64,000 bases of DNA from an uncultured bacterium (GCA_937952265.1 CALFYW010000016.1:206661-270660); one strand, 5' to 3'; shown: positions 1,059 to 44,240, numbered from the stretch's first letter. Notes: a model not told the origin generated them from the sequence alone. Numbers and translations: made by a program.

Positions 1059-3197
1059 ATGGAAAAAAAAGAATATAGACTCACGTTAGGAAATGATGAG
1101 TTAGTGTGTGAATTTAGCGATTTAGCAGAACAAGCAAATGGTTCGGTTATGGTCAAATATGGCAATACCGTAATACTTGCTACCGCGGTCATGTCTCAGG
1201 AACCAAGGGACAACCATTTTTTTCCGCTTACCGTGGATTACGAAGAAAGATTCTATGCCGCAGGACAAATCCTCGGAAGCCGGTTTATGCGCCGAGAGGG
1301 AAGACCTTCGGACGAAGCAATTCTTACCGGACGAATCGTGGATCGAACGATACGGCCACTTTTTGATCAACACATTCGAAATGATATTCAAGTTGTTATT
1401 ACCGTACTTTCTCTTGGAACCTATGATCCTGATACACTCTCGGTGATTGGAGCCTCCCTTGCTCTCTCTACGTCAGATATTCCTTGGAATGGCCCCGTGA
1501 GCGCGGTTCGTGTTATTAAAAAAGACGAAAAAAGTGATTTCAGTATTAACCCGTCGCTTACCGAACGTTCAGAACAAGAAGAAGTAAAACCGCTGGTTGA
1601 TCTTATTGCGTGCGGAAAAGGCGGAACTATCAATATGATTGAGTGTGGCGGATATGAGGCGGATGAATCCCTTGTCGGAGACAGCCTTGATCGAGCACAT
1701 GAAGAACTGGAAAAAATAGGAGTGTTTCAGCAGAAAATTATTGCCGAGAGAGGAAAAAAGAAACGAGAACTCGTCTATGAAGAGGCGCCAAAAGAAGCAC
1801 TTGCATCTCTTTTTGAAGAGCATATCGGAGAAACACGTCTTCATGAGGCTTTATTTAGTGGACCTGGAAAAAAATATATTTCAGCACTCGAAAATGAGTG
1901 GATTTCCCTATTAAGCGAGACTCATCCTGAGATAAAAAAGTCGCACGCTTTGGAATATATCGAAGAGAAGATCAATGATCTCTTACATAAAGAGGCAATT
2001 GAAAATGGGCGCCGCCCTGACGGAAGAAGTGTAAATGAAGTGCGTCCGCTCTTTGCACAAGCAGGAAACATCTCTCCGCTACTTCATGGTTCTGGAATTT
2101 TCTATCGAGGCGGGACCCACATCCTCTCCGTTTTAACCCTTGGAGGGCCCGGGGACTCACTCATTATTGATGGTATGGAAATGCAGACCAAAAAGCGGTT
2201 CATACACCATTACAATTTCCCACCCTTCTCAACCGGGGAGACGGGGCGCATTGGGGGTACCAATCGGCGCATGGTGGGTCATGGCGCACTGGCTGAAAAA
2301 GCGCTTCTTCCCGTTATTCCTTCAAAAGAAAACTTTCCATACACCATTCGACTTGTTTCAGAAGCCTTCGCTTCTAACGGATCAACCTCGATGGGATCAG
2401 TGTGTGGAAGTAGCCTTGCGCTTATGGATGCGGGAGTGCCCATTACAAATGCGGTGGCAGGTATTGCTTCTGGATTGATGTTTGAACAAAATGACCGATA
2501 TCAACTATTAACTGACATCCAAGGTCCTGAAGATCATCACGGGGACATGGATTTTAAAGTTGCAGGAACACGAAAGGGAATTACGGCGATTCAAATGGAT
2601 GTCAAAGTAAACGGTATTCCTATTCCCATTCTTAAAGAAGCGCTCCTACGTGCAAAAGAAGCTCGGGAGACTATTCTTGAAAGAATGGATCAGGAAATAA
2701 AAACTCCACGTACTGATATTTCACCTTACGCGCCCAAAATTCTCGCTACCAAAATAAAAGTATCACAGATTGGTATGGTCATTGGACCAGGAGGAAAAAA
2801 CATCAACGAGATTAGGGAAAAAACAGAAACTGAAATTGATATTGAGGATGACGGTACCGTCTTTATCACCGGCAAAGGAGAAGGTCCGTTACGTGCAAAG
2901 CAGATTATTGAAGAAATGACCCACGAATACCGTCCGGGAGAGAAGATAGTAGGGACCATTACCCGTATTACCGATTTTGGAGCATTTGCAAAATTTGGAG
3001 CTGATACTGAAGGGTTGATTCATATTTCAGAAATTGCTCCATTTCGAATTAACGCGGTAAAAGAGGTTCTTTCTGAAGGGGAAACTGTTTCCGCGGTAAT
3101 TAAAGAAATTGATGAACGTGGCCGTATCCGGCTTTCTATTAAAGATTTAGATCCAGAATTTGCAACTAAAAAAGGAATAGCTCCTCCTAAGAAATAA
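1059..3197 (+). CDS. pnp: polynucleotide phosphorylase (PNPase)
   Basis: 712 aa, alignable along its full length to PNPase: two RNase PH domains plus KH (VIGPGGKNINEI) and S1 (GTITRITDFGAFAKFG) domains at the C-terminus. Immediately follows rpsO. Confidence 0.95.
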   Translation: MEKKEYRLTLGNDELVCEFSDLAEQANGSVMVKYGNTVILATAVMSQEPRDNHFFPLTVDYEERFYAAGQILGSRFMRREGRPSDEAILTGRIVDRTIRPLFDQHIRNDIQVVITVLSLGTYDPDTLSVIGASLALSTSDIPWNGPVSAVRVIKKDEKSDFSINPSLTERSEQEEVKPLVDLIACGKGGTINMIECGGYEADESLVGDSLDRAHEELEKIGVFQQKIIAERGKKKRELVYEEAPKEALASLFEEHIGETRLHEALFSGPGKKYISALENEWISLLSETHPEIKKSHALEYIEEKINDLLHKEAIENGRRPDGRSVNEVRPLFAQAGNISPLLHGSGIFYRGGTHILSVLTLGGPGDSLIIDGMEMQTKKRFIHHYNFPPFSTGETGRIGGTNRRMVGHGALAEKALLPVIPSKENFPYTIRLVSEAFASNGSTSMGSVCGSSLALMDAGVPITNAVAGIASGLMFEQNDRYQLLTDIQGPEDHHGDMDFKVAGTRKGITAIQMDVKVNGIPIPILKEALLRAKEARETILERMDQEIKTPRTDISPYAPKILATKIKVSQIGMVIGPGGKNINEIREKTETEIDIEDDGTVFITGKGEGPLRAKQIIEEMTHEYRPGEKIVGTITRITDFGAFAKFGADTEGLIHISEIAPFRINAVKEVLSEGETVSAVIKEIDERGRIRLSIKDLDPEFATKKGIAPPKK

Positions 3198-3292: not shown

Positions 3293-5080
3293 TTGATAAT
3301 AATGGATACTACTAACCCGCAGAGTGAGGCGAACTCTGCATCGCAACAACATTCTCCCGCATTGCGACACGGTATGCGACCGCGGGGCGGATCACGCGAA
3401 TACGCGCACACCCTTCCACGGGTACGCACCTTTGATCGAGACCTCAAAGCGCAACAGTCAACCGAACCTCGAGGCCAGTCCACCCCCAAACCAGAAATAG
3501 TGAAAGAAGCACCTAAACCTCTGCCAACGCCACCAAACCCCACGCTTAAAAGCTCCTCTGAGATAAAGCAGGCTCCGCAGAATCTACCAACTGGAGACTT
3601 CTCTCCTGATACCTTCATACGTACACACCCAATCCAAGAACCTCCGAGGCCTCAAAAACCAGAACCACCGAAAAATGCTCCTCCGAGGCCTCCTGACACT
3701 CATGAAGTGCCACAACCACCACAAAAGACAGGGAAAAGTTCTCCGCTTCCACATCTACATACCTATGAAAAAGATGTAATCAAAGCAGGGGGCACCTCTC
3801 CACACCCCCCGAAAAAACCTATTACGGTATCAAAAGAGCGTACTGCGGAGCCTGGAGCCGTGCCATTACCCCCAGTCGTAAAGAAAGACTCTCGAGAGCA
3901 AAAAACATCTTCTACTAAGGCGCCATTCCACACCTATACTCGTGATGTTGATCACGCGCAACGAAAACAAGATGTAGATGCTCAGAAACAGACAAACTCA
4001 AATATCGGAGAATCTCTAAAGAGGGAGGAGTTAAGCGCGCTCATTCAAAAAAAATATCACCAGCCAATCACTGAAAAAGCGCCTCTCGATCCCAAAAAGC
4101 GAATACTTCCTCGGCGACCGATTCCACAAACACCCCCTCCACAACCAGAAGTCCCTAAAAAACCTCCTTCCGCAAAAGGATCCTCAAAATTCTTTTCCCG
4201 TATTATGCACCCGCTTCGCACCTATGACGCTGATCTCGCGACACATGTTAAAAATGAAAAGGCGAGCCGAATTAAAATCGCGCTCACGGAACAAAGTATT
4301 CAGGCACGACGTGAAGCATACGCACAAAACAAAATCCCAATCCCACCACAAAAAAAGAAGAAAATTTCAGCTGATACCTACCCATTTGAGGTTATTGGAA
4401 ACCGAGAACAAAGAAAACGACACGCGATCTTACCAACACTTATCATAAGCATCGCGCTTATGGTCGTGGGAGGAGGTATTGCGTACGGGGGTTATCGTAT
4501 TGCGAACCGAATGCCACAAACCGTAACATTTGATACGGGGAACATCCTCATCACCGAAACAAGCAGGAAAATTCAAAACGAAAACCTCAAACCATCTTCC
4601 GTACAGGAAATTATTGAGAACCTCTCTATTGGAAATGACGCGATTGTTCACCTCTATAGCACACGTACCACCCCTGAAGGAGTTGAATTTTTCATGCCAA
4701 GTAGCACTTTTATCAGCACCCTCGCGCCAGAAATACCAGGTATCCTTGCTCGCTCCTTGAAACCAGAATTCACTTTTGGGGTCTACGGGCACGAGGGAGA
4801 TAAGGAAGCATTCCTGGTACTCAAGACCAACTCGTATCCCCATGCATTGGGTGGCATGCTCCAGTGGGAAGCATCTCTACCAAAAAGCATTTCGGGTTTG
4901 TTTGGAAACCTAACTACCACCCAAAATTCATTTACTGATATGTTCATCAAAAATCGTGATGTTCGCGTTCTTTATGGGGATAACGAGGAAATGATACTGC
5001 TTTATTCTTTTATCGATAAACAAACTCTGATTATTGCCCAAAGTGAATTGGTATTTCTTGAAATCTTAACCAGACAATAA
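3293..5080 (+). CDS. hypothetical membrane-anchored protein with a proline-rich disordered N-terminal region
   Basis: 595 aa. Residues ~60-300 are Pro/Lys/Gln-rich low complexity (PPRPQKPEPPKNAPPRPP). A single TM segment (ILPTLIISIALMVVGGGIAYGGY) precedes a ~200-aa C-terminal domain of unknown type. Confidence 0.45.
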   Translation: MIIMDTTNPQSEANSASQQHSPALRHGMRPRGGSREYAHTLPRVRTFDRDLKAQQSTEPRGQSTPKPEIVKEAPKPLPTPPNPTLKSSSEIKQAPQNLPTGDFSPDTFIRTHPIQEPPRPQKPEPPKNAPPRPPDTHEVPQPPQKTGKSSPLPHLHTYEKDVIKAGGTSPHPPKKPITVSKERTAEPGAVPLPPVVKKDSREQKTSSTKAPFHTYTRDVDHAQRKQDVDAQKQTNSNIGESLKREELSALIQKKYHQPITEKAPLDPKKRILPRRPIPQTPPPQPEVPKKPPSAKGSSKFFSRIMHPLRTYDADLATHVKNEKASRIKIALTEQSIQARREAYAQNKIPIPPQKKKKISADTYPFEVIGNREQRKRHAILPTLIISIALMVVGGGIAYGGYRIANRMPQTVTFDTGNILITETSRKIQNENLKPSSVQEIIENLSIGNDAIVHLYSTRTTPEGVEFFMPSSTFISTLAPEIPGILARSLKPEFTFGVYGHEGDKEAFLVLKTNSYPHALGGMLQWEASLPKSISGLFGNLTTTQNSFTDMFIKNRDVRVLYGDNEEMILLYSFIDKQTLIIAQSELVFLEILTRQ

Positions 5081-5507: not shown

Positions 5508-7049
5508 ATGAGCTTCGCGAAGGTTTATAGCGGACAAACACATCTCCTTTCAGCACATATCGTAACCATAGAGGTAGATATCTCTCGTGGACTCCACTCT
5601 TTCTCTGTTGTGGGTCTCCCTGACAAAGCAGTAGAGGAATCACGGGATAGGATTTCTGCTGCAATAAAGAATTCCGGCTTTACTTCACCAAAACATAAAA
5701 ATCAAAAGGTCGTTATCTCACTTGCCCCCGCGGAATTGAAAAAAGAGGGGGCTATTTTTGATCTCGGTATGGCACTCGTATACCTTCACGCATCCGGGGA
5801 TATCGTATTTGAACCATCAAAAAAATTATTTTTGGGAGAACTTGCGCTTGATGGAACCTTGCGCCCTACGCATGGCATACTTCCCATCGTACACGAAGCT
5901 AAAAAGCAGGGTTTCACTGAAGTCTTCGTTCCAGCGAACAACACTGCCGAGGCATCTCTCATTCATGGTATGCATATATATGGAGCCAACACCTTAAAAG
6001 AAGTCATTCGCCATATCGATACAAAAGAAAATTTCTCTCTTACGCGAGCTCCGCACCACAAGCACGAATGCTCGCACTACGCCCCGCTTATTGATTTTAG
6101 TGACATTCGAGGCCAACAATCGGCAAAACGAGGACTTGAAATCGCCGCTGCCGGCGGACACAATATTGCGCTTTTTGGGCCACCAGGAACTGGAAAAACA
6201 ATGCTCGCACGAGCATTTCCAGGCATTCTGCCACCGTTTTTATACGAAGACATTATTGAGGTAACGAGCATCCACTCAATCGCAGGGCTTCTTTCAGAGA
6301 AATCACTTATCACCACACCACCATTTAGAACCCCGCACCATACGGCATCTTATGTTTCTATCGTTGGAGGGGGAAATGCGCTTCGTCCAGGAGAAGTAAC
6401 ACTAGCGCATCGTGGGGTTCTTTTTCTTGATGAATTTCCTGAGTTTGACCGCCGTGTGATCGAAGCGCTTCGGCAACCGCTTGAAGATCGAACCGTCTCT
6501 ATTTCTCGCGCGCGAGGTTCAGCTACATTTCCAGCGCAATTTATGCTTATTGCATCAATGAATCCTTGCCCTTGCGGCTACCACGGCTCTTCAAACCGAG
6601 AATGTACTTGCGCACCCCACATGCTCCTCCGTTACCAAAAGAAAATATCTGGTCCTATTATCGATCGTATTGATCTGTGGATTGAAGTTCCTGAAGTCCC
6701 TCACCATCTCTTAAAAGAAACCGGTCGCTTGTCAGAGGGGAGTCTATGCATTAAAGAAAGAGTTGGGAGCGCACGCAAAATACAGTATGAGCGCTTTAAG
6801 GAGCACCCTCAGAATATTCGGCTTAACAGTGAGATGAATACGCGTGATCTCGAGCATCATGCGCATCTGGGGAATGACGCGAAACATACACTCACACAAT
6901 CTGCCCAAACATTAGGGCTTTCAGCACGGTCATATCATCGAGTCATTAAACTTGCCCGAACCATCGCTGATCTCTCCCAAAGCTCTACAATTACCGAAAA
7001 CCACATTCTCGAAGCCCTCCAATATCGCCCAAAATCTATTTCCCGATAA
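5508..7049 (+). CDS. comM: YifB/ComM-family Mg-chelatase-like AAA+ ATPase
   Basis: 513 aa. N-terminal Lon-protease-like domain, Walker A GPPGTGKTM, Walker B/arginine-finger region VLFLDEFPEF, C-terminal ComM helical domain. Confidence 0.9.
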   Translation: MSFAKVYSGQTHLLSAHIVTIEVDISRGLHSFSVVGLPDKAVEESRDRISAAIKNSGFTSPKHKNQKVVISLAPAELKKEGAIFDLGMALVYLHASGDIVFEPSKKLFLGELALDGTLRPTHGILPIVHEAKKQGFTEVFVPANNTAEASLIHGMHIYGANTLKEVIRHIDTKENFSLTRAPHHKHECSHYAPLIDFSDIRGQQSAKRGLEIAAAGGHNIALFGPPGTGKTMLARAFPGILPPFLYEDIIEVTSIHSIAGLLSEKSLITTPPFRTPHHTASYVSIVGGGNALRPGEVTLAHRGVLFLDEFPEFDRRVIEALRQPLEDRTVSISRARGSATFPAQFMLIASMNPCPCGYHGSSNRECTCAPHMLLRYQKKISGPIIDRIDLWIEVPEVPHHLLKETGRLSEGSLCIKERVGSARKIQYERFKEHPQNIRLNSEMNTRDLEHHAHLGNDAKHTLTQSAQTLGLSARSYHRVIKLARTIADLSQSSTITENHILEALQYRPKSISR

Positions 7050-7208: not shown

Positions 7209-8186
7209 TTAAAAAGGATTTTTTGCACCTCGAACTTCAAAGTGAAGGTGGGGGCCGGTTGATTTACCGGTTGAACCAACGTATCCAATAACTTGCCCTT
7301 GGACCACATATTGTCCTGAAACTACAATGTTGTTTGAATTATGGGCATACAAAGTCTGGGTGCCATTTTCATGTCTAATTACTACATAATTTCCATATCC
7401 GCCATTCCATCCATAATCTTTACTAATCAAAACTGTACCCGCCGCCGCGGCATATACTGGCGCACCAGTATAGGTTGCAAGATCAACTCCGTTGTACCCG
7501 TGCAATCCTTGTGTTCTCACACCTCCGCTAATAGGGCGTAAATAGTAGCCTTGATACTCTGGCCCGCTCGCGATGTTGCGCGGAGCAGTATTCTTTTGAG
7601 AAGCGGGGGTAGCTATCTTAGGCGCGGGTATTTCACCATCAGGAACTACTACAATCTCGCCAACTTTTAAAGAGACGCCGTGTAAACTGTTATATCGGAT
7701 AATTTCACTCAGATCTGCTTCATATTTCTTAGCAATACGCTCTAACGTATCTCCCTCTACGACAGTGTGTTGAACTCCTGAAATAGGAAGAATAACGAGT
7801 GTTTGACCAGGATTAATAACTCTGTTTTTAATATCATTAGCCCAGATAATGGTGTTTACATTTACATTAAACATTCGGGCAATTTGAGAAAGAGAGTCCC
7901 CCTCGCGTACCACATAAATACTAATCTGATCAGAAGCTTTCTTCTCTTCTACATCCACGATGGTCCCCACCGGCCCATTCTCTGAAAGCAGCGCAGCGCC
8001 CCCAACTACCGTAATATCTCCACCTCCAAGCGAAGGGTTAGGTGTAATTGCGGCGTGTAAGAGCGCCATGTTTTGCGAATTAAGCCCTCGTTGACGTTCG
8101 GTATCTTGGGATACCACCTCACTTTTGCCCGCAACTAAAGAAGAGAAGATGGAAAAAATCCCTGCATGTGCCGCATAAGGAAGCAA
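7209..8186 (-). CDS. LysM-domain M23-family peptidoglycan endopeptidase
   Basis: Two LysM-like repeats (GDSLSQIARMFNVNVNTIIWAN and GDTLERIAKKYEADLSEIIRYN). C-terminal M23 motifs HGYNGVDLA and GSTGKSTGPHLHFEV. The tracked start is a TTG; the hydrophobic signal region continues upstream, so the true start is uncertain. Confidence 0.85.
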   Translation of the reverse strand: MLPYAAHAGIFSIFSSLVAGKSEVVSQDTERQRGLNSQNMALLHAAITPNPSLGGGDITVVGGAALLSENGPVGTIVDVEEKKASDQISIYVVREGDSLSQIARMFNVNVNTIIWANDIKNRVINPGQTLVILPISGVQHTVVEGDTLERIAKKYEADLSEIIRYNSLHGVSLKVGEIVVVPDGEIPAPKIATPASQKNTAPRNIASGPEYQGYYLRPISGGVRTQGLHGYNGVDLATYTGAPVYAAAAGTVLISKDYGWNGGYGNYVVIRHENGTQTLYAHNSNNIVVSGQYVVQGQVIGYVGSTGKSTGPHLHFEVRGAKNPF

Positions 8187-8606
8187 AAATAAGCCTAAAA
8201 ATAGAGGTATGAGTACACCTGCACGAATATCTGATAGATAGTTTCGACGGGATCTTTTATGTCGTTTACCGTCAAATGTGTGACGAAGGGGTAAAATAAG
8301 CCAAAAAGTTAGGTGACGTACCGAAATACTAGATTAAAAGCTCAATAGAGCCGCGAAAACAGCCGTTACAGTAGTATCTTCCACTATACTAAACCCTCTA
8401 TTAAAGTCAACCGAGTTATAAACATCACCACACAAAAAATCCCTGGCAAGTATCATGAGATAATGGACCTGGTCCGATCACCTCCGATTACTTCGAGGCT
8501 CCGCGACATACACACCACGTGCGAATCAAAAATGTGTGGATTGGTGATGAGCCTACCTTAACGTTATAATAGAATAAATTTCTTCAGAGAAATATATTTC
8601 TTTTAG

Positions 8607-9053
8607 TTGGTGGTGGTGCCTTTCGGAAAAATCTTTTTTATTCTTATATTTATGAAATTTCAAGTTCCTCAATTCATCGAAGTAGAAGATCGAATCTTCG
8701 GACCATTAACGCTCTGGCAATTTCTCTACCTCATTGGAGGAGCGGGACTTTCAGTGGTCATTTTTCGATTTGTTCCCTCAACGGGGATCGCTTTCGTACT
8801 AATTGCGCCCGTAATCATATTCTCTTTAGCGCTTGCATTCTACAAAATTAATAACCGTCCTTTTATCAATGCGGTTGAATCCGCATTTAGATTTTTCACC
8901 AGAAATAAGCTCTATATTTGGAAACGAGAAAACAAGTCTCCTCAAACAACAACAGGGGAAGCGGGTGCGCGCGCATCAGACGCGCTTATTCCGCGACTTT
9001 CAAACAGTAAACTAAAAGATTTATCCTGGACCCTTGATATACACAAAAAATAA
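8607..9053 (+). CDS. PrgI-family (VirB3-like) conjugation/T4SS membrane protein
   Basis: QFIEVEDRIFGPLTLWQFLYLIGGAGL followed by hydrophobic segments and ...NRPFINAVESAFRFF match the PrgI family pattern. It immediately precedes a VirB4-like ATPase. Confidence 0.55.
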   Translation: MVVVPFGKIFFILIFMKFQVPQFIEVEDRIFGPLTLWQFLYLIGGAGLSVVIFRFVPSTGIAFVLIAPVIIFSLALAFYKINNRPFINAVESAFRFFTRNKLYIWKRENKSPQTTTGEAGARASDALIPRLSNSKLKDLSWTLDIHKK

Positions 9054-9058
9054 CAAGC

Positions 9059-9691
9059 ATGGCAAAAGCAACACAAGAATTTATTCCCATAAAAGAAATA
9101 CGCAACGGTATTGCGGTGATGAGAGACGGGTCTCTCAGAGGAATTGTTATGGCATCCTCACTTAACTTCGCGTTAAAATCAAACGATGAACAGATTGCGA
9201 TTCTTTCGCAGTTTCAAAATTTTTTAAATTCCCTTGATTTTCCAGTTCAAATCTTTATTGAATCAAGAGAGCTTGATATCCGCCCCTATCTTGCACTCCT
9301 TGAAACACGGTTTACCCAAGAAATGGAAGAGTTAATCAAAACACAAACACGAGAATACATTGAATTCATCAAAGCGTTTACCCGGGACACCAACATTATG
9401 ACCAAAAGTTTTTTTATCATTATTCCGTATTCGCCAGAAATTATCTCTTCTTCATCTCAAAACATTAAAGGGATCTTTAAAAAGAAAACGGCAGAGGAGG
9501 TTCAGTCCGCGCGTATTGAAGCATTTGAGGAAAATCGCTCGCAACTCGAGCAACGTATCGCGGTGGTAGAGCAGGGTCTTTCTCGAACCGGTATTCGTAT
9601 TGCGCGACTCGGGACCGAAGAAATTGTTGAGCTATTTTATCGACTATTTAACCCCGGGGACGCGGAAAAACCAATGTCAGTACATACATAA
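9059..9691 (+). CDS. VirB4/PrgJ-like ATPase, N-terminal segment (separate ORF)
   Basis: Sequence FIPIKEIRNGIAVMRDGSLRGIVMASSLNFALKSNDEQIAILSQFQNFLNSLDFPVQIF resembles the N-terminal domain of Gram-positive VirB4 homologues. The ORF stops 2 nt before the ATPase ORF, which is in a different frame. Confidence 0.5.
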   Translation: MAKATQEFIPIKEIRNGIAVMRDGSLRGIVMASSLNFALKSNDEQIAILSQFQNFLNSLDFPVQIFIESRELDIRPYLALLETRFTQEMEELIKTQTREYIEFIKAFTRDTNIMTKSFFIIIPYSPEIISSSSQNIKGIFKKKTAEEVQSARIEAFEENRSQLEQRIAVVEQGLSRTGIRIARLGTEEIVELFYRLFNPGDAEKPMSVHT

Positions 9692-9693
9692 TT

Positions 9694-11532
9694 ATGGGTA
9701 TATTTGACTTCTTAAAACCAAAAAAGGATCAAGGAAACCAAGAATCAGTACCGATTCTTCCACAAGAAATCATGGAAGCGGGTGCTTTAGAACTCAAAGA
9801 TGTTATTGCTCCATCAGCAATAAATATTACCCCTCGCGAAATTAATTTGGGAGAAAAAATTATTCGTACTTTTTTTGTTATTTCATATCCACGCTATCTT
9901 TCAGACAGTTGGTTTGCACCAATCATTAATCTCGACAAAGTATTTGATGTATCTATTTTCATTCACCCTATTGAAACCTCACGGGTATTACGCCAATTTC
10001 AGAAAAAAGTCGCGGAAGTGCAAAGCCAGATCAATACGCGGGAGGAGCGCGGTTTGGTCCGCGACCCAATGCTTGAGACCGCATACCGTGATCTTGAAGA
10101 ACTTCGAGACAATCTTCAACAAGCACAAGAGAAAATCTTTAACGTGGGTCTTTATGTCTCTATTCATGGCGAATCAAAAGAAGAGCTTGATAAAGCTGAG
10201 TCTGAAATTAAATCAATCCTTGAAGCTAAACTCGTGTATGTTAAACCCGCGCTTTTCCAACAAGAAGAAGCCTTTAAGAGTATTCTGCCCACCGCGACCG
10301 ACCTCTTGCAGGTGCATTCAAAATTAAATTCGTCTCCACTTTCAAGTATTTTTCCTTTTGTATCATTCGACCTTACTTCTGATCGAGGTATTCTCTATGG
10401 CATCAATCGACACAACGCGAGTTTGGTACTTTTTGATCGCTTTTCTCTAGAAAATTATAATTCTGTTACCTTTGCAAAATCAGGAGCCGGAAAATCTTAC
10501 GCTACAAAACTCGAAATACTCCGCACCCTCATGTTTGATACCGATGTGATTGTTATTGATCCCGAAAAAGAATATGAGTACCTTGCTGAATCAATTGGGG
10601 GCAGATATTTCAACATTTCTCTTAATTCAGAGCACCATATCAATCCCTTCGATTTACCAACCCCTCGTGAAGATGAATCTCCCGAAGATGTATTACGTTC
10701 AAATATCATTCATCTCGTTGGCCTTTTCCGAATCATGCTTGGAGGGCTCACTCCAGAGGAGGACGCGGTAATTGACCGTGCTATTACCGAAACCTATGCG
10801 CTTCGAGATATCACCCCGCATACTGATTTCTCTAACATCGAAGCGCCTTTAATGTCTGATTTTGAATTAGTGTTGCGGGGTATGAAAGGAGGGGAAGGGC
10901 TTGCGCAACGACTTTCAAAATACACCCAAGGCACTTGGTCTGGTTTTATTAACCGGCCATCAAATGTTGATATTAACAAAAAATTCGTGGTTTTCTCTGT
11001 TCGAGATATGGAGGATGAATTAAAACCAGTGGCAATGTATATTGTCATGAACCATATTTGGAATGCGGTAAGAAAAAATCTTAAAAAACGACTTCTGGTT
11101 ATTGATGAGGCATGGTGGATGATGAAGGCTGAAGATACCGCCTCATTCCTGTACGGACTTGCAAAGCGTGGAAGAAAATACTATCTCGGTATTGCAACCA
11201 TTACCCAAGACGTAGGGGACTTTCTTCGATCTCCTTATGGGCTTCCGATTATCACTAACTCATCTATTCAAATATTACTCAAACAATCACCGACTGCGAT
11301 CGATAACGTTCAAAAGACATTTAATCTGACTGATGAGGAAAAATACCTTCTGCTTGAGTCTGACGTGGGGGAGGGTATCTTTTTTGCAGGATTAAAACAT
11401 GTTGCGATAAAAATTATCGCGTCATATACGGAGGATCAAATTATTACTTCTGACCCATCGCAGATTCTTGCAATACGAGACGCGAAACAAGAAGTAAAAC
11501 AAGACTCAAAGGCTTCGCTCGATTCAAAATAG
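9694..11532 (+). CDS. VirB4/TraE/PrgJ-like T4SS ATPase (ATPase domain)
   Basis: 612 aa. Walker A FAKSGAGKSYATK and Walker B LLVIDEAWWMM, typical VirB4/CagE-family architecture. Confidence 0.8.
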   Translation: MGIFDFLKPKKDQGNQESVPILPQEIMEAGALELKDVIAPSAINITPREINLGEKIIRTFFVISYPRYLSDSWFAPIINLDKVFDVSIFIHPIETSRVLRQFQKKVAEVQSQINTREERGLVRDPMLETAYRDLEELRDNLQQAQEKIFNVGLYVSIHGESKEELDKAESEIKSILEAKLVYVKPALFQQEEAFKSILPTATDLLQVHSKLNSSPLSSIFPFVSFDLTSDRGILYGINRHNASLVLFDRFSLENYNSVTFAKSGAGKSYATKLEILRTLMFDTDVIVIDPEKEYEYLAESIGGRYFNISLNSEHHINPFDLPTPREDESPEDVLRSNIIHLVGLFRIMLGGLTPEEDAVIDRAITETYALRDITPHTDFSNIEAPLMSDFELVLRGMKGGEGLAQRLSKYTQGTWSGFINRPSNVDINKKFVVFSVRDMEDELKPVAMYIVMNHIWNAVRKNLKKRLLVIDEAWWMMKAEDTASFLYGLAKRGRKYYLGIATITQDVGDFLRSPYGLPIITNSSIQILLKQSPTAIDNVQKTFNLTDEEKYLLLESDVGEGIFFAGLKHVAIKIIASYTEDQIITSDPSQILAIRDAKQEVKQDSKASLDSK

Positions 11533-11534
11533 CT

Positions 11535-11882
11535 ATGAAAAAAAGAGAGAGAATCAGTGCCACGATGACCTTATTACTCATGATGACTGCGATTTTTTTT
11601 GATGTATTTCAGGCAATACTCACCTTTGCGGGAGGTATCGGATTGATCGCGAATCGTTTTATTTCTCTTTTTGCAATGCTTTCATTTGGATTTTGGTTTG
11701 TCATGCTTGGAGTAAGTCTCTTAAACACCCGTCGCTTAGCAGTAAGTATTACCACATCGCTTGGAGAAATGATTCCCTTTATTGGAACTCTTCCGCTTTG
11801 GACTATTGGTATTGCCGCTCTTATTGCTATGGTAAAATTAGAAGATAGGACGGGTGTTTCAATAACTCATAAATTTAAATAG
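11535..11882 (+). CDS. small polytopic membrane protein (T4SS-cluster associated)
   Basis: 115 aa with 3-4 predicted hydrophobic helices. Tightly packed, 2-nt spacing, after the VirB4-like ATPase. Confidence 0.4.
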   Translation: MKKRERISATMTLLLMMTAIFFDVFQAILTFAGGIGLIANRFISLFAMLSFGFWFVMLGVSLLNTRRLAVSITTSLGEMIPFIGTLPLWTIGIAALIAMVKLEDRTGVSITHKFK

Positions 11883-11883
11883 G

Positions 11884-12879
11884 ATGATACGATACTCTTT
11901 TTTTATTTATCTCTTTTGTATAAGCATGCTCGTAGCAGGGTACGCGCTTCCAGCGTCTGCGCAGGTATTTTCCGCAAATCACAATATCACGTCATCGATT
12001 ACACCCGAAACTCCCGCTCCAAACGAGGAGGTGTCAATTCGTATTCAGAGCTTTAATACGGATCTCGGTAGTGCGTTTATTACATGGTCGGTTAATGGGG
12101 TGGAAAAATTGAGTGGGACCGGAAAAACAGTATTTACGTTCACCACAGGAAATAATGGGTCTCTTAACGTGGTGCGTATGTATGCAAGGACCAAAGAAGG
12201 AGAGACTGTTACCAGAGATTATCGCATTGCTCCAGGAATTGTTTCGTTATTCTGGGAGGCAGAGACGTATACCCCTCCGCTCTATCGAGGAAAAGCTCAA
12301 TTTACTACCGACGCTTCGCTTCGAGTAATTGCGCTTCCAACCATTATTGAAAATGGGGTGGAAGTCTCTCCAGCAAACCTCTTTTACGCGTGGATGATTA
12401 ACGGGGAAGAAAAGCCCCTTCTTTCAGGTTATGGGAAAGAGAGTATCGTGATACCAGCGAAAGACACCGCGAAAAGAAGCGTGGTGATTTCGGTTAAGGT
12501 AACATCGAGGAGTGGGGGAGAAGCAGAAACTTCAACAACCATTGAACCTGTAAGGCCTGAAATACTCCTCTATGAAAAAGATCCGCTATTAGGAATCCTT
12601 TTCAACCGAGCAATTACGGGCGACTTTTTACTTTCTCAAAATGAAGTTCATTTTGAAGCATTTCCTTTCTTCTTTTCATCATATTCAAATCAAGACCCTC
12701 GTATCACCTATCAATGGCGCATGAATAATAAGATGATTGAAAATGAAGAGGGGTCTCATGCGATCACCTTACGGAATGAAAACCAAGAAGGGACTGCCTA
12801 TATCAGCTTGCAGGCGTCACATCAAGAAAACTTATTTCAAACCGCACAAAAGACCGTTCTCATCAATTTCAAAAATTAA
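11884..12879 (+). CDS. secreted hypothetical protein (T4SS-cluster associated)
   Basis: 331 aa. N-terminal signal peptide MIRYSFFIYLFCISMLVAGYALPASAQ. No recognisable catalytic motifs. Confidence 0.45.
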   Translation: MIRYSFFIYLFCISMLVAGYALPASAQVFSANHNITSSITPETPAPNEEVSIRIQSFNTDLGSAFITWSVNGVEKLSGTGKTVFTFTTGNNGSLNVVRMYARTKEGETVTRDYRIAPGIVSLFWEAETYTPPLYRGKAQFTTDASLRVIALPTIIENGVEVSPANLFYAWMINGEEKPLLSGYGKESIVIPAKDTAKRSVVISVKVTSRSGGEAETSTTIEPVRPEILLYEKDPLLGILFNRAITGDFLLSQNEVHFEAFPFFFSSYSNQDPRITYQWRMNNKMIENEEGSHAITLRNENQEGTAYISLQASHQENLFQTAQKTVLINFKN

Positions 12880-12880
12880 C

Positions 12881-13804
12881 ATGTCTTTTTCTTTTAAAAA
12901 AATCGCCCTTTCGCTTTCGAACATTATCGGAACAGGTATTATTGCTCTACACCCCAAACTCATCACTGCCCAAGAAGCAGGTGATTATGAATTACTCGCA
13001 CCACTTCCAATCGATGGAGTGAGTGAGGGGGTGGTTACTTCACTTCCCGCATACCTCTCAGGGCTCTTTGGTTTTGCAATTGGAATCGCGGCGGTTCTTG
13101 CGGTGGTAATGATCGTGCTTGGCGGTATTCAGTATATGACGGACGACGCGGTCTCTAATAAATCAGAGGGGAAAGAGAAAATCACTGCCGCGGTTGGAGG
13201 ATTGATTCTTGCCCTTGCTTCATGGTTAATACTTAACACAATCAATGAGAATATTATCAGTAGTAGCTCATTGGTGCTTGATAATGACGTGAGTGGCACG
13301 GCCTCGGAAATTGCTGAGATTGCCACTGGACCTCATTACCTTGAATATCAGCATGCAAGCTACTTACTTTCGGAGGTCGTTCCTCGTTACATTCTTGGAT
13401 ACCGAAACACTCCACAATCTGGAGAATTCCAGGAAGAATTTCCCACGCTCGAAGGATGCGGAATACGCCGACTCGATTTAGAAGCTCAAGGAAAAATAAT
13501 ATCCACTCGATGTAGAAGCATGCTCCGATTGGATGAAAATGGGGGCCCACTCATGCTTAATCGTCGCTACGAAAAAAGAGAGTTGTGTATCGAACAAGCA
13601 GAAAGAGTGGTAGCACTCAAGAAACCTGAGGTAATAAAAATATATTGCGAGCTCACCCCTGAAGAATCAGTATTTTTAGAGACTTTTGAAACGAAAGACT
13701 CCTGTCGAAATCGATCAAATGAATTAAAACAAAACACCAACAGAAGATCTATTATCGTTACGCAATGCACCCCTACCACTAACTTAGAATCACAGTATGA
13801 ATAA
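12881..13804 (+). CDS. hypothetical membrane/secreted protein with a VirB2/TrbC-like N-terminal hydrophobic hairpin and a Cys-rich C-terminal domain
   Basis: The true start is the ATG at 12881, immediately after the upstream stop; the tracked ORF start at 12737 overlaps the previous gene. Signal-like segment, then two hydrophobic helices (LSGLFGFAIGIAAVLAVVMIVLGG and AAVGGLILALASWLILNTI) reminiscent of T4SS pilin topology. C-terminus has 7 Cys. Confidence 0.4.
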   Translation: MSFSFKKIALSLSNIIGTGIIALHPKLITAQEAGDYELLAPLPIDGVSEGVVTSLPAYLSGLFGFAIGIAAVLAVVMIVLGGIQYMTDDAVSNKSEGKEKITAAVGGLILALASWLILNTINENIISSSSLVLDNDVSGTASEIAEIATGPHYLEYQHASYLLSEVVPRYILGYRNTPQSGEFQEEFPTLEGCGIRRLDLEAQGKIISTRCRSMLRLDENGGPLMLNRRYEKRELCIEQAERVVALKKPEVIKIYCELTPEESVFLETFETKDSCRNRSNELKQNTNRRSIIVTQCTPTTNLESQYE

Positions 13805-15056
13805 ATGGATATTAATTCTGATCACCATACTCGCCATACTTCTTGCTGGCGCTATGTTCCTCTTTTTTAATGGCACGCGTGTAAAACCTGAAGCGACGAG
13901 TGAGACACCTGGATCATTAAGTATCATTGACCGTATTCAAAATATTTTCTCTCAAACAGAAAATCCTCAAGACCCTCCAACTTCAATAATAGAGGGCGGG
14001 TCAACACCCCCACCTCCTTCAAACGAGAATTTAGCACTTCCGCTTGAACGTATTGGCAATAATCCAATTGCGGGATTTATGGTCCATGATGATACTTCAA
14101 ACAAGGTTCGATACATGGAAAGCGCCCTTGGACATATCTATGAAAAAGAGGAAGGGAAGATGTCGGAGCGTCTCACTAACACTACGATCGCGCATGTGCA
14201 GAACGTTTATTGGGCAGAAGCAGGAGAACGAGTACTTGCACAATTTCTGAGCACAAATACCAATCAACTTGTAGTAGCCACTTTCTCTGGAAAACTCCAG
14301 GAGAGTAATTCAGAGAATGAAACACCTTTTGTCGTCCGAGGATCTTTCCTTCCTGAAAATATTATTGATATGAGTGTCTCCCCCCGTGGAGAAAAAATAT
14401 TCTACCTTCTTAAAGATGGGGGAGAGTCTTTCGGGATTCGCGCCAATCCGGATGGGAGCAGTGCCCAGACTATTTTTAGATCGCTAATTACTGAATGGCT
14501 CACTTCATGGAAAGATGCTCGAATTACTCTCACCACAAAACCTGCATATAATATCGCTGGTATTGCCTATAGCCTCAACCCAGAGAGAGGGGTCTCCCAA
14601 AGGATACTTGCTCCTACTCCCGGGCTCACCACTAACGAACACCCTGAGGGTACCTATATTCTTTATGCGAAAAATGGAGAAGGGAATCTCATGACACTTG
14701 CAGCGCTTAATCAACGTACCAATGAAGTACTACCGTTATCTTTAAAGACACTCCCTGAGAAATGCGTCTGGAGTAAGGAAAAAGAGGATGTGCTCTATTG
14801 TGGAGTTCCAGAAACCATATTTCCCGGAAACTATCCTGATGATTGGTACCAAGGGAAAATTTCTTTTACTGACACCTTATGGGAAGTCAATCTCAACACA
14901 AAAACTACACTTAAAATTGCTGATCTTGAGGCCCTTTCCGGGGAAAGCCTTGATATTATTGATCTCGCATTAAGCAAAGACGAGGAATCGCTTTACTTTA
15001 AGGATAAAAGAGGGGGGATGTTGTGGCAATACCGCTTTACTACTCCAAACCGTTAA
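13797..15056 (+). CDS. membrane-anchored hypothetical protein, possible beta-propeller fold
   Basis: N-terminal TM helix (WILILITILAILLAGAMFLFF), then a Pro-rich linker and a ~330-aa domain with repeated hydrophobic/turn motifs (PDGS, KDGG). Confidence 0.4.
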   Translation: MNKWILILITILAILLAGAMFLFFNGTRVKPEATSETPGSLSIIDRIQNIFSQTENPQDPPTSIIEGGSTPPPPSNENLALPLERIGNNPIAGFMVHDDTSNKVRYMESALGHIYEKEEGKMSERLTNTTIAHVQNVYWAEAGERVLAQFLSTNTNQLVVATFSGKLQESNSENETPFVVRGSFLPENIIDMSVSPRGEKIFYLLKDGGESFGIRANPDGSSAQTIFRSLITEWLTSWKDARITLTTKPAYNIAGIAYSLNPERGVSQRILAPTPGLTTNEHPEGTYILYAKNGEGNLMTLAALNQRTNEVLPLSLKTLPEKCVWSKEKEDVLYCGVPETIFPGNYPDDWYQGKISFTDTLWEVNLNTKTTLKIADLEALSGESLDIIDLALSKDEESLYFKDKRGGMLWQYRFTTPNR

Positions 15057-15528
15057 GCACTGAGGGGTTATTTTCTCCTTGATAGCGAATAACTACCCGT
15101 CGATATTTTCCTTCTCCTGTTGATTCCGTTAAAATATCTTTCGTGTCTGCAAATAAAGAGTGGATGAGCATGCGCTCATAAGAACCCGCGGGGTCCATTT
15201 CTACATCATGTTTAAAAAAACGTGCCCGTTCAGCAAGAATTGAAGCTTTTGTCTTTACTGATTCATTCTTTTTATCGTAATAATCATTGATATCAATCAA
15301 TGTTTTTTTATCATAATTGAGATTTCGATGAGACAGAATGCGAGAAAAGAGGTGATTGAGTGCATGAAGGGTTTCTCCATGGTTTCCAATAAGAATCCCT
15401 GATTCATCTGTTTTTACCGAGAAACAGGTTGCTGGTGGCCACTCTCGTTCACTAACTTCAATCGTGTGAAAGGTGATGCCCATATTATCCAAAATTTGAG
15501 AGATGATGTTGTGAGCTTCTTCATGCAT
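15040..15528 (-). CDS. jag: Jag/KhpB-like RNA-binding protein (KH + R3H)
   Basis: 162 aa, KH-like and R3H-like motifs (IGNHGETLHALNHLFSRIL). Located directly downstream of yidC as in the conserved rpmH-rnpA-yidC-jag cluster. Confidence 0.75.
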   Translation of the reverse strand: MHEEAHNIISQILDNMGITFHTIEVSEREWPPATCFSVKTDESGILIGNHGETLHALNHLFSRILSHRNLNYDKKTLIDINDYYDKKNESVKTKASILAERARFFKHDVEMDPAGSYERMLIHSLFADTKDILTESTGEGKYRRVVIRYQGENNPSVLNGLE

Positions 15529-15536
15529 ACGTAATT

Positions 15537-16280
15537 TTATGATACCCCTTTAGCAAGCGCGCCTCGTTTTCGGCGTATTGCAAATTCTTGTCCAATGGTA
15601 AAGACATTGCTTGTTGTCCAATAGAGCGCGATAGCTGCTGAAATCTGCCATGCGATAAAAAATACAATTACTGGGAGCACATACCGCATTTGAACATTCA
15701 TACTCCGTGCTAAATCATCTTTCAATGATGGTTTTCCTGAGGTCTTTTTGGGGGGCATGGGAGGAATCATTAATTTCCCTTGAATAAACTGGGAAATACC
15801 TGCGGTAAGGGCGAGCAGAACGCTTTTTCCCGCAATATCAATAAATCCTAAAAATTGCATATTTACCATCTCTGGAGTAGGCACAAAGGCGTATAAAATA
15901 TCGGTATTGATGTCGGGAAGCCCACCACGCAAAAAAACAAAATAAAGCCCTAAAATAATCGGGATTTGAATAAGTATGAGAAAAATACTTGAAAATGGGT
16001 TTATTTTTTTATCACGATAGAGCGCCATGAGTGCTCGAGCTTGGGCTTCTCGGTCTGTTTTATGCTCTTCTCTTATTTTTTTAATTTCAGGGTCAATTTC
16101 TTTTACCTTCATCTGTGTCTCAACCGCGCTTTTAGATAGAGGAAAAATGAGCAACTTAACCAAAACGGTAAGCAAAAGTACCGCGAATCCAGCATTTGCG
16201 CCAGGAAGTATATCGATCAAAAAAATAAGCCCGTTGTAGAGGGGTTCGTAGATAACCGTGTTAAACAATGACCCAATCAT
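15537..16280 (-). CDS. yidC: membrane protein insertase YidC/Oxa1 (short form)
   Basis: 247 aa with the YidC core TM helices (LLTVLVKLLIFPLS, MKVKEIDPEIKKIREEHK, MALYRDKKINPFSS). Confidence 0.85.
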   Translation of the reverse strand: MIGSLFNTVIYEPLYNGLIFLIDILPGANAGFAVLLLTVLVKLLIFPLSKSAVETQMKVKEIDPEIKKIREEHKTDREAQARALMALYRDKKINPFSSIFLILIQIPIILGLYFVFLRGGLPDINTDILYAFVPTPEMVNMQFLGFIDIAGKSVLLALTAGISQFIQGKLMIPPMPPKKTSGKPSLKDDLARSMNVQMRYVLPVIVFFIAWQISAAIALYWTTSNVFTIGQEFAIRRKRGALAKGVS

Positions 16281-16336
16281 ATCTTGTATAATAGCTTATT
16301 ATTAGTGTTAATCAAAATTATCTTTTTCTAAGGTAT

Positions 16337-16675
16337 TTATTGGTGACCTTTGAAAATTTTGGCTAATTCTTGGGAAATAGCCTGAAAAGAGGCTTTGTTT
16401 GAGTCTTTTTTAAAGATTACCACCACCGCTCTTTTATGTTGAGTTTCTTTATTGTGCTTATAAATAATCGATTTGCATCGGCGTTTTAACTGATTTCTCT
16501 TTACCGCGCTTGAAAATACCTTGGTAGAAACCGTACATATTCCTTGAAGAGGAAATGGGGTAAATAACGGCAGGTGGTAAGCAGTAAATAAAAAGGAGTG
16601 TGTTGCCACCCCCTCAAAGCGCACTTTTTTGGAAAGGTCTTTTTTAAGAGGTTTTTGAGGCTTTATAGGTGCCAT
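16337..16675 (-). CDS. rnpA: ribonuclease P protein component
   Basis: 112 aa, basic, with the RNR-like motif (AVKRNQLKRRCKSIIY). Position between rpmH and yidC. Confidence 0.85.
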   Translation of the reverse strand: MAPIKPQKPLKKDLSKKVRFEGVATHSFLFTAYHLPLFTPFPLQGICTVSTKVFSSAVKRNQLKRRCKSIIYKHNKETQHKRAVVVIFKKDSNKASFQAISQELAKIFKGHQ

Positions 16676-18518: not shown

Positions 18519-19613
18519 ATGAAGATAGAATGCTTAAATACAAACTTACGAGAAGCTCTTTCGAAAACAGAAAGAGCAGTAGGAAAAAATTTATCATTAC
18601 CGGTGTTGGGGTATGTATTACTTGAAGCAGTGAATAAGAAAATAATACTCAAAGCTACCAATCTTGATCTAGGTGTTGAGGTTGAAGTTCCTGGAAATGT
18701 TTCTTCTCATGGTGTTGTTGCGATTCCTAACACAACATTAGCATCAATTCTCTCTGGTGAGTCAGAAAAGGTTACTCTTGAGTCTTACGAGGAGAATTTA
18801 CTGGTAAAGACTAAAAACAGCTCTTCGGTGATTAAAACTGTTCCACATGATGAATTTCCAAATATACCGCGTATTACCAGTGCGACAAGGATTCTTATTC
18901 CCGTATCTGATTTTATTAATGGTATTCGATCAGTTTGGTATAGCGCTTCAATTTCAACAATTAAACCAGAGCTTGCAAGTGTTTTTGTGTATTATCATGA
19001 TAAACATATAGTGTTTGTATCGACCGACACCTTTCGTCTTGCTGAAAAAAAGATTCCTATAGAAAAAAATTCTGATTTTGACCCATTTCTTATTCCGGTT
19101 AAAAATATCCCTGAAATTATTCGAGCCTTCGATGGTTTTGATGGAGTTATGGATATTCAAATTACTAAAAATCAAGCTTCTTTTACTATCCCTGGTATCC
19201 ATATTTCTTCTCGAATTGTTGAAGGTACTTTTCCTGACTATCAACAAGTAATACCGAAAGATTTTACTACTCATGTGGTGTTGCTTAAGTATGATTTTAT
19301 CAACGCGCTTAAAAAAGCAACCTCTTTTTCTGGAAAATTTTATCAAATATATTTTTCTGTTGATACTGATAAAAAAAGATTTGAAATTACTTCAAAAAAT
19401 AATGATATTGGAGAACACTCCGATGTGTTTGATGCGGCAATTGAAGGAGATGATTTAATGATTAGTTTTAATTATCGTTACATTATTGATTGTTTCCAAT
19501 CTATCTCATCAGATAGTATCTCTTTGAACCTAGTAGGTCCATCAAAACCAATGGTTATTCGTGGAATTGGAGACGGAACATTCTGTTATTTGGTGATGCC
19601 TATGAATAAATAA
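18519..19613 (+). CDS. dnaN: DNA polymerase III beta sliding clamp
   Basis: 364 aa, three-domain clamp-like periodicity, N-terminus MKIECLNTNLREALSKTERAVGKN. Located directly after dnaA. Confidence 0.9.
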   Translation: MKIECLNTNLREALSKTERAVGKNLSLPVLGYVLLEAVNKKIILKATNLDLGVEVEVPGNVSSHGVVAIPNTTLASILSGESEKVTLESYEENLLVKTKNSSSVIKTVPHDEFPNIPRITSATRILIPVSDFINGIRSVWYSASISTIKPELASVFVYYHDKHIVFVSTDTFRLAEKKIPIEKNSDFDPFLIPVKNIPEIIRAFDGFDGVMDIQITKNQASFTIPGIHISSRIVEGTFPDYQQVIPKDFTTHVVLLKYDFINALKKATSFSGKFYQIYFSVDTDKKRFEITSKNNDIGEHSDVFDAAIEGDDLMISFNYRYIIDCFQSISSDSISLNLVGPSKPMVIRGIGDGTFCYLVMPMNK

Positions 19614-43899: not shown

Positions 43900-43922
43900 A
43901 CCTTGTTTTCTTAACCCTTACC

Positions 43923-43950
43923 AACACCACTCTGGGAACAGAGTGGTGTT
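43923..43950 (+). promoter_or_regulatory. 12-bp GC-containing hairpin with GGAA tetraloop downstream of VR (DGR homing-associated stem-loop / target-gene terminator)
   Basis: AACACCACTCTG-GGAA-CAGAGTGGTGTT followed by TTGTTG. It lies 50 nt past the VR end. Confidence 0.55.
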
Positions 43951-44128
43951 TTGTTGTACAATAACAACGGCTGTTAAATTGGTCCGCCTATAGCAAGATA
44001 ACAATTTGCCGATATGTAGAAATTGCTTGTCGCGTCTTTACACTATGCCCGCTCTGCCACGGAGGAAACGCAGAAAATCTTCCCAAAAGATTTTTGGTGA
44101 AATGGACAAAGCGCGACAAAATGAGCCT

Positions 44129-44240
44129 CCGCCTTCCCGGCGGCGGGGTCGCGTACGGTAACTGGAATCCAGACAACCGCAAGGTTTACCTCAACTGGAA
44201 CTATCGCGACAACCGCAACGGCAACTACGGTGCTCGTTCA
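44129..44240 (+). repeat. DGR template repeat (TR)
   Basis: Non-coding copy of VR, rich in AAC codons in the VR reading frame (NWNPDNR...NWNYRDNRNGNY). 26 adenines, 18 of them substituted in VR. Confidence 0.8.

Follow-up and report, generated by a model that had tools for sequence, protein, structure and literature searches.

A seven-gene type IV secretion locus of the Patescibacteria kind beside the replication origin of an uncultured bacterium

Type IV secretion systems (T4SS) of Patescibacteria, the candidate phyla radiation (CPR), have been described both from genome surveys and from genetics. Of 3,035 Patescibacteria genomes surveyed, about 80% were found to encode VirB4, which forms a monophyletic clade nested in the MPF-FATA class of conjugation systems (Quinonero-Coronel et al., 2025, PMC12102498). 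In the same survey TrsD was the commonest companion of VirB4, PrgI/VirB3, VirB6 and VirB2-like pilins were encoded nearby, and the T4SS locus of Paceibacteria lay close to dnaA, dnaN, rnpA and ksgA. Relaxases were present in about 3% of the genomes and VirD4 homologues in most, usually at a distance from virB4 (PMC12102498). In Southlakia epibionticum, which lacks coupling and relaxase proteins, epibiotic growth requires the T4SS cluster and its pilins (Wang et al., 2023, PMC10633639), and comEC is dispensable (PMC10633639; PMC12857230). Exchange with the host through the pilus, acting as a conduit, has been put forward as speculation (PMC12857230). Here we analyze a stretch of 64,000 nucleotides from an uncultured bacterium (GCA_937952265.1 CALFYW010000016.1:206661-270660), referred to below as the window, which contains a run of seven T4SS-related genes. 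This operon is an origin-proximal, non-conjugative Patescibacteria T4SS, a copy of a system that has already been described and not a new kind of system. We put the probability that it is a Patescibacteria chromosomal T4SS descended from monoderm MPF-FATA conjugation machinery at about 0.8.

The first three genes were assigned by profile searches. The first product, with transmembrane (TM) peaks at residues 19 and 45, matched PF12666 (33.1 bits; gathering score 27) and probably anchors the VirB4 ATPase in the membrane. The second product matched the NCBIfam TrsD family (NF041427) with E = 8.5e-7 over profile positions 16-200 of 201, a full-length match that is nevertheless under the family cutoff (29 bits vs 200). 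It also matched positions 103-258 of the Mbov_0397 VirB4 (E = 8.2e-12) and positions 1-136 of the CD1110 VirB4. The third product, a VirB4-family ATPase, scored 379 bits against the CD1110 VirB4 family (NF045971, cutoff 325) and covered profile positions 178-733. VirB4 therefore aligns from where the TrsD-like protein ends, and the two, which jointly span positions 1-733 of the 752-position CD1110 VirB4 profile, together reconstitute one canonical VirB4.

Both Walker motifs of the ATPase are intact, with Walker A (GAGKSY) at residues 264-269 (10483-10500) and Walker B (DEAWWMM) at residues 471-477 (11104-11124). The protein also matched PF19044 (1.1e-26), a "TraG P-loop" model that we take to be a VirB4-type family and not a coupling protein. 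Searches with Pfam and NCBIfam profiles gave no match of VirB4 to an FtsK/SpoIIIE or type IV coupling protein (T4CP) family. The best solved relative is the C-terminal domain of Thermoanaerobacter VirB4 (PDB 4AG5, E = 9.6e-41); R388 TrwK was far weaker. A preliminary description of this DNA, made from the sequence alone, had proposed a Gram-positive-type T4SS with a PrgI/VirB3-like membrane protein and a VirB4 ATPase bearing these two motifs. The profile searches bear this out: VirB4 falls into the CD1110 family of Firmicute integrative conjugative elements (ICEs), its best structural relative is 4AG5, and PrgI and TrsD are MPF-FATA markers. The opposite outcome, in which the ATPase would classify with FtsK/TraG and the similarity to PrgI would disappear, failed on both counts.

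In order to place the locus among its relatives, VirB4 relatives were collected at one genome per species, and the best 80 of 590 were compared with the window; loci counts and identities to the window given here and below refer to these 80, where many absent genes are due to contig ends. VirB4 was present in 80/80 loci with 75-81% identity (median 79%), the TrsD-like protein in 78 (median 60%) and PrgI in 76 (median 51%). Of the genes further downstream, those for a secreted protein with three immunoglobulin (Ig)-like domains (76 loci, median 33%) and for an anchored beta-propeller protein (62 loci, median 30%) were less similar, and a pilin match was obtained in 61 loci. The conserved order reads PrgI - TrsD - VirB4 - (3-TM protein) - Ig-triplet - pilin - propeller - (jag) yidC rnpA / dnaA dnaN. 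With yidC in 59 loci and dnaA in 54, the location on the dnaA/dnaN/rnpA side recurs in 53-59 of the 80. Close VirB4 relatives (75-84% identity) all came from Parcubacteria/Paceibacteria metagenome-assembled genomes (MAGs), and there are thousands of relatives with about 80% identity, of which those with a named source are Parcubacteria, Paceibacteria or related candidate phyla. Sequence relatedness thus strongly implies that this VirB4 belongs to the Patescibacteria clade.

The median identity to the window was 79% for VirB4, compared with 61% for DnaA, 49% for YidC and 44% for DnaN; for the surface proteins it was 30-33%. VirB4 is thus more conserved than DnaA, a pattern that speaks against a mobile element and in favor of vertical inheritance with strong purifying selection. 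In two relatives (L001, ~2500-3000, and L062, 8860-9255) the core is interrupted by an open reading frame (ORF) of 126-142 aa inserted within the PrgI-TrsD-VirB4 run. The family of this ORF comprises 20 copies in 16 loci, some of which have more than one.

The chromosomal setting was inspected in the window and in about 6 kb past each of its ends. The jag-yidC-rnpA and dnaA-dnaN genes lie immediately downstream, which places the operon beside the replication origin. Among the roughly 50 larger ORFs of the window, compared with Pfam, there was no VirD4/T4CP, relaxase or integrase, and the ~6 kb beyond either end contained no T4SS-related genes. The sole tyrosine recombinase nearby is XerC/D-like and sits beside rpsO, about 1 kb beyond the upstream end of the window and about 9 kb from the operon. 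A search for flanking direct or inverted repeats returned just short, chance-like matches. The GC content of the operon (0.40-0.43) lies within that of most of the window (0.39-0.46), and the dnaA-dnaN stretch (16-20 kb) alone is lower (0.32-0.34). The earlier statement that no relaxase or coupling protein is in view hence holds for the 64 kb and about 6 kb past each end, and the absence of an integrase is borne out among the window ORFs compared with Pfam, as is that of meaningful repeats on the flanks of the operon. The proposal that the apparatus is chromosomally fixed rather than mobile is strongly supported by the gene order retained across the 80 Paceibacteria species genomes and by the conservation of VirB4 above that of DnaA.

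The sixth gene encodes a VirB2-like T4SS pilin. Residues 53-121 matched PF18895 (T4SS_pilin) with 35.9 bits (cutoff 26.6), and the match to NF045849, a pilin-like family of Mycoplasma ICEs, was below cutoff (1.7e-4). Behind its signal peptide, the protein has two hydrophobic helices, which close with a "TIN(P/E)" motif, and a C-terminal extension of ~185 aa with six cysteines. It so corresponds to what had been noted as a secreted protein with a VirB2/TrbC-like hairpin and a Cys-rich tail. In the orthologues, which range from 188 to 474 aa in total length, the two-helix core is conserved, and the C-terminal extension is always present, with 0 conserved columns. The C-terminal domain of the pilin is hypervariable. 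Profile searches of the PDB with the pilin and with the TrsD-like protein gave nothing significant, and no second pilin was found among the small membrane ORFs of the window. A VKOR-family protein with ~9 predicted TM segments is encoded elsewhere in the window; it is likely an extracytoplasmic disulfide-forming enzyme, which fits the Cys-rich pilin tail and an invariant Cys pair of the propeller protein.

Among described systems, the Patescibacteria T4SS (PMC12102498; S. epibionticum SEML1_0006-0019, PMC10633639) shares with the window the clustering of TrsD, PrgI, VirB4 and a VirB2-like pilin, the absence of relaxase and T4CP nearby, and the chromosomal position beside dnaA/dnaN/rnpA. Whereas arrays of short pilins are reported for Saccharimonadia and Microgenomatia, the window encodes just one pilin, which is long and has a hypervariable C-terminal domain. 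It also differs from known Patescibacteria T4SS in that the VirB6-like gene and three neighbors are not adjacent. The Ig-triplet protein, the propeller, the 3-TM family and the long hypervariable pilin tail find no mention in PMC12102498, PMC10633639 or PMC12857230.

More distant likenesses concern single components. As in the Trs system of the staphylococcal plasmids pGO1/pSK41 (TrsC, TrsD, TrsE), TrsD is a separate protein, here aligned over the full profile; no other MPF-FATA prototype has a separate TrsD, a homologue of the VirB4 N-terminus, beside a VirB3-like protein and VirB4 (PMC12102498). Trs is, however, plasmid-borne, has a relaxase and a T4CP, lacks a VirB2-like pilin and conjugates, and the TrsD match is remote. 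The VirB4s of the Clostridioides ICEs (CTn2/CD1110) and of Thermoanaerobacter pseudethanolicus (4AG5) represent the best curated family and the best solved relative, respectively. They are unsplit, full-length proteins on mobile elements, whereas the window encodes the first ~177 positions separately. In the ICE of Mycoplasma, a wall-less monoderm, VirB4 (Mbov_0397) is likewise paired with a small two-helix pilin-like protein (Mbov_0395). The window VirB4 scored 264 bits against the Mycoplasma ICE VirB4 family, with all matches to Mycoplasma ICE families below cutoffs, and the Mycoplasma system, in contrast to that of the window, is mobile and performs conjugation. Helicobacter ComB, Bordetella Ptl and Brucella VirB resemble the window in having no relaxase and, in some cases, no VirD4 either (PMC12102498, PMC12857230). 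Unlike the window, they are diderm systems with outer-membrane cores of VirB7, VirB9 and VirB10, and show no specific sequence kinship to the window VirB4.

The seven ORFs are co-directional on the + strand (8652-15056) and intact, and their lengths are normal and their conservation typical relative to orthologues. Consecutive genes are separated, in order, by 5, 2, 2, 1, 1 and -8 nt, indicating one tightly coupled operon. According to an alignment with 75 orthologues, the first gene most likely starts at the ATG at 8652 (MKFQVPQFIEVED...) and not at the TTG at 8607. At the other end, the last gene and the convergent jag/khpB (15040-15528, - strand) share 17 nt. A promoter may be located in the intergenic region upstream of the PrgI gene. 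Direct reading of this region revealed a perfect TATAAT at 8565-8570, and a sigma-70 consensus scan of the + strand upstream of the operon found no full match and no convincing promoter. The preliminary description had correctly counted seven co-directional genes, but had opened the operon at 8607. Of its spacing of 0-4 nt, the tight packing stands and the upper figure does not, as one gap is 5 nt. Its list of products left the 210-aa TrsD-like gene undescribed, and its four products without recognizable family reduce to three, the 115-, 331- and 419-aa proteins.

Table 1. Positions of the operon genes, their neighbors and other features in the window, counted from its first nucleotide.
Feature	Position	Strand	Size	Remarks
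PrgI/VirB3-like membrane protein	8652-9053	+	133 aa	2 TM helices; PF12666
TrsD-like soluble protein	9059-9691	+	210 aa	equivalent to N-terminal domain of unsplit VirB4; NF041427
VirB4-family ATPase	9694-11532	+	612 aa	monoderm/MPF-FATA type; NF045971, PF19044, 4AG5
Small polytopic membrane protein	11535-11882	+	115 aa	3-4 TM helices; no known family
Secreted three-Ig protein	11884-12879	+	331 aa	AlphaFold2 fold
VirB2-like T4SS pilin	12881-13804	+	307 aa	PF18895
Membrane-anchored beta-propeller protein	13797-15056	+	419 aa	AlphaFold2 fold
Intergenic region	8187-8651	+	465 nt	upstream of operon; junction where the UvrD...c4 block of relatives is absent
LysM x2 + M23 peptidoglycan peptidase	7209-8186	-		Peptidase_M23 8.4e-32, LysM 2.3e-25 (Pfam)
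ComM/YifB	5508-7049			~1.6 kb upstream of operon
Protein without family	3293-5080	+	595 aa	
jag, yidC, rnpA	15040-16675	-		directly downstream of operon
dnaA	16958-18304	+		downstream, after rnpA
dnaN	18519-19613	+		downstream, after dnaA
Diversity-generating retroelement	43087-45688			
ORF without family	43087-43899		270 aa	variable repeat at its 3' end
Variable repeat	43761-43872		112 nt	82% identical to template
Template repeat	44129-44240			diversity-generating retroelement
Reverse transcriptase	44486-45688			RVT_1, 6.9e-26
VKOR-family protein	61439-62458	+	339 aa	~9 predicted TM segments

Three operon products are envelope proteins without a sequence family. The slot directly 3' of virB4 is occupied in most relatives by a protein of 110-300 aa with 2-5 TM helices. 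In the window this is the 115-aa protein, which has a conserved Asp in TM1 and an "ExIP...LPxWT" motif and belongs to a family of 41 members (E = 2.9e-42 against the family hidden Markov model, HMM). It had no match in Pfam, NCBIfam or the PDB, and a Pfam scan of 47 orthologues gave scattered noise. The protein is a candidate small channel or assembly subunit. Comparisons by hhalign as a second pilin, a mini-VirB6 or a PrgI-like protein all gave probabilities below 30%.

In the 331-aa protein, three Ig/FnIII-like beta-sandwich domains (~35-115, 119-220 and 226-329) lie in tandem behind a Sec signal peptide (...ASA|Q), and each domain has a "W-x-x-N" motif (W68, W170, W278). Its AlphaFold2 model, computed from a 77-sequence alignment, reached a predicted local distance difference test score (pLDDT) of 92.4 and a predicted template modeling score (pTM) of 0.80. 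A Foldseek search of the PDB with this model returned generic tandem-Ig proteins only (SbsB S-layer protein, Hoc, SiiE adhesin, NCAM). There was no sequence family in Pfam or NCBIfam, and no solved sequence relative in a PDB profile search.

The 419-aa protein consists of an N-terminal TM helix (3-24), a disordered Pro-rich linker of ~55 residues (~25-80) and a seven-bladed beta-propeller (83-413), with an invariant Cys323/Cys335 pair and a "YPDDWYQG" motif. The AlphaFold2 model (119-sequence alignment, pLDDT 90.2, pTM 0.81) retrieved generic seven-bladed propellers from the PDB with Foldseek (oligogalacturonate lyase 3C5M, DCAF1 WD40, TolB 7MX5); Pfam and NCBIfam held no sequence family for this protein, and the PDB profile search was not significant. 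Structure prediction of the 331- and 419-aa proteins thus yielded an Ig-triplet and a seven-bladed propeller, respectively, and the latter confirms the beta-propeller that had been suspected from the sequence. A search for a VirB8-like protein (NTF2 fold) gave no sequence match, and neither the Ig-triplet nor the propeller model is NTF2-like. VirB8 is rarely detectable in Patescibacteria (PMC12102498).

In relatives, a co-directional block of genes, UvrD - KsgA - c13 - c12 - c8 - c4, precedes PrgI. The last four encode proteins of ~299 aa (c13, anchored), ~538 aa (c12), ~745 aa (c8, polytopic) and ~208 aa (c4). The c8 protein is VirB6-like, as PF04610 (TrbL/VirB6) was matched in 6/35 members (best E = 6.5e-7). 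Among 54 sequences that extend 6 kb or more upstream of VirB4, 53 have c8; the single exception is the window. Neither tblastn nor family HMMs in six frames detected UvrD, KsgA, c13, c12, c8 or c4 in the window, and these genes are also absent from ~6 kb past each of its ends. A VirB6/TrbL profile search, which had been recommended for the window, found no c8-type match, and the 115-aa membrane protein showed no relation to c8. In profile comparisons with the missing families, no relation was found for five unannotated membrane or secreted proteins of the window (298, 186, 518, 595 and 347 aa). The Ig-triplet and the propeller were also considered as kin of c12 or c13, and hhalign probabilities were all below 30%. 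Domains were seen in some of the 16 members of the c12 family that were scanned: four have discoidin (F5/8 type C, galactose-binding) domains and four have bacterial TSP3 repeats, the cases being ~800-aa members from loci L003, L005, L008, L014 and similar. These domains suggest that c12, which belongs to the upstream half of canonical loci, is an adhesin that binds carbohydrates.

The fuller order in two relatives (L062 and L150) is (595-aa protein) - DksA - ComM - M23(-) - UvrD - KsgA - c13 - c12 - c8 - c4 - PrgI. Comparison with the window shows that exactly the UvrD...c4 block is gone between M23 and PrgI. The closest relative, a Wolfebacteria MAG (L001), has the M23|PrgI junction in common with the window (VirB4 81%, M23 62% identical). 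A metagenome scan with the c8 alignment found 32 canonical loci, and in the remaining 6/38 c12-c8-c4 was followed by rpsL-rpsG-fusA-tuf-rpsJ instead of PrgI-VirB4, indicating that the two half-clusters are separable in nature. As all seven window genes are intact, relocation of the block is likelier than its loss, and it has probably moved elsewhere in the genome.

The M23 peptidase gene is divergent from the operon, and its product has no lytic transglycosylase or CHAP domain. In canonical relatives (L062, L137, L144, L150, L154) it lies upstream of UvrD-KsgA-c13-c12-c8-c4-PrgI. Some VirB1 homologues have M23/LysM domains, and VirB1 homologues associate with virB4 in Paceibacteria (PMC12102498). 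The LysM+M23 peptidase is thus a possible functional stand-in for VirB1, with uncertain membership of the system. Besides ComM, the genes further upstream encode a DksA/TraR-type zinc-finger protein, a 595-aa protein and polynucleotide phosphorylase. The 595-aa protein has a Pro/Lys-rich N-terminal region of ~370 aa, which is probably disordered, then a TM helix near 378-400, and ends in a domain of ~195 aa. In the metagenomic locus L150, tblastn revealed a homologue in the matching upstream neighborhood.

Two further elements of the window were recorded. Type IV pilus genes are scattered over it (27313-28977 and 39704-40306 on the - strand; 46658-49232, 55394-56901 and 59423-60127 on the + strand). 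They encode a PilB ATPase, PilM, which has three small single-TM ORFs behind it, and several proteins whose N-termini are pilin-like or contain a methylation motif; of the five unannotated proteins mentioned above, at least those of 298 and 186 aa look type-IV-pilus-related. The type IV pilus is a second surface-filament system alongside the T4SS. The other element is a diversity-generating retroelement (Table 1). When its repeats were compared, together with 10 nt of unrelated flank on each side, A was on the template side in 23/38 mismatches. Such a bias of mismatches toward template A is the pattern expected of diversity-generating retroelements.

In T4SS, VirB3 anchors VirB4, and VirB4 energizes pilin extraction and pilus assembly. 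On this model, PrgI would tether the TrsD/VirB4 motor to the membrane, and ATP hydrolysis by VirB4 would pull the Sec-inserted pilin from the membrane and drive its polymerization into a pilus-like fiber or conduit through the monoderm cell wall. The exposed, host-contacting part would consist of the hypervariable pilin tail, the secreted three-Ig protein and the tethered propeller, and three other conserved genes would, together with that for the VirB6-like channel subunit, be located elsewhere in the genome. The role of the system would be contact-dependent exchange with a host cell, either export of effectors or import of host molecules, and not conjugation. We rate such an exchange well above DNA uptake, decay or conjugation.

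Several points speak against this interpretation. No pilus has been seen. The window is without the VirB6-like gene, c4, c12 and c13, so that this copy could be incomplete. A pilin with a C-terminal domain of ~185 aa may polymerize unlike canonical VirB2, and synteny and generic folds are the only grounds for the proposed roles of the 115-, 331- and 419-aa proteins. The essentiality data are from Saccharimonadia, another class, and the function of any Paceibacteria T4SS has not been demonstrated. Finally, a T4CP may be encoded elsewhere in the genome, as VirD4 homologues lie far from virB4 in many Patescibacteria (PMC12102498).

A further reading sees in the system an import or exchange conduit and not a machine for secretion or conjugation. 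Here the pilus would be driven by VirB4, the hypervariable pilin tail would set host specificity, and the Ig-triplet and propeller would dock the pilus to a host cell, in this lineage possibly with no adjacent VirB6-like subunit or none at all. We consider this reading tentative and its chances low.

Also unlikely is a T4SS for DNA uptake like Helicobacter ComB or the archaeal Ced system, in which DNA from the host or the environment would be taken in to supply nucleotides to a cell unable to make them. Like ComB, the window has no T4CP or relaxase. DNA uptake has been raised as an idea for Saccharibacteria (PMC11665869), and comF, recG and radA adjoin the T4SS in class ABY1 (PMC12102498). The window VirB4 does match CedB (NF041017), but the match is weak and partial (E = 3.9e-10, 39 bits, cutoff 700), and the protein belongs to the conjugative CD1110/MPF-FATA family and not to ComB4 or CedB. 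ComM lies close to the operon; however, an oppositely oriented gene intervenes, and in canonical relatives there are ~8 kb more genes between the two. The operon itself has no DNA-binding or nuclease component. Moreover, type IV pili, for which the window has genes, are the shown route of competence in Saccharibacteria (PMC12857230).

It is also unlikely, at a level just below DNA uptake, that the system is reduced or decaying, with the VirB6-like block deleted and the seven genes either nearing loss or working as a VirB6-independent pilus or adhesion machine. This reading draws on the position of the window as the only one of 54 sequences without the VirB6-like gene, and on the absence of the entire UvrD...c4 block from 64 kb and its surroundings. 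Against decay stand seven intact ORFs of normal length and typical conservation, and the M23|PrgI junction is common to a distinct species (L001), so that the arrangement is old and its genes are undecayed. The missing block also includes the housekeeping genes uvrD and ksgA, and split arrangements with an intact upstream block do occur among the metagenomic loci.

That the operon is a remnant or part of an ICE, with relaxase and coupling protein outside the window, is very improbable: all recognizable components do descend from Gram-positive conjugation genes, and most Patescibacteria have VirD4 homologues, mostly distant from virB4 (relaxases ~3%; PMC12102498), but the dnaA-adjacent position and gene order are kept across 80 species, VirB4 is more conserved than DnaA, the GC content of the operon matches most of the window, and there is no integrase, att-like repeat or cargo gene, the nearest recombinase being the XerC/D-like one ~9 kb away.

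The Patescibacteria T4SS is the sole monoderm T4SS with VirB2-like pilins, and the window offers a clean Paceibacteria example of it. The details added here are the seven-gene operon with its corrected start, the predicted folds of two surface proteins, the 3-TM family that follows virB4, the hypervariable C-terminal domain of the pilin and the two separable half-clusters; the kind of system is unchanged by them. If the reading as an import conduit were true, an auxotrophic CPR bacterium would use this apparatus to draw in molecules of its host.

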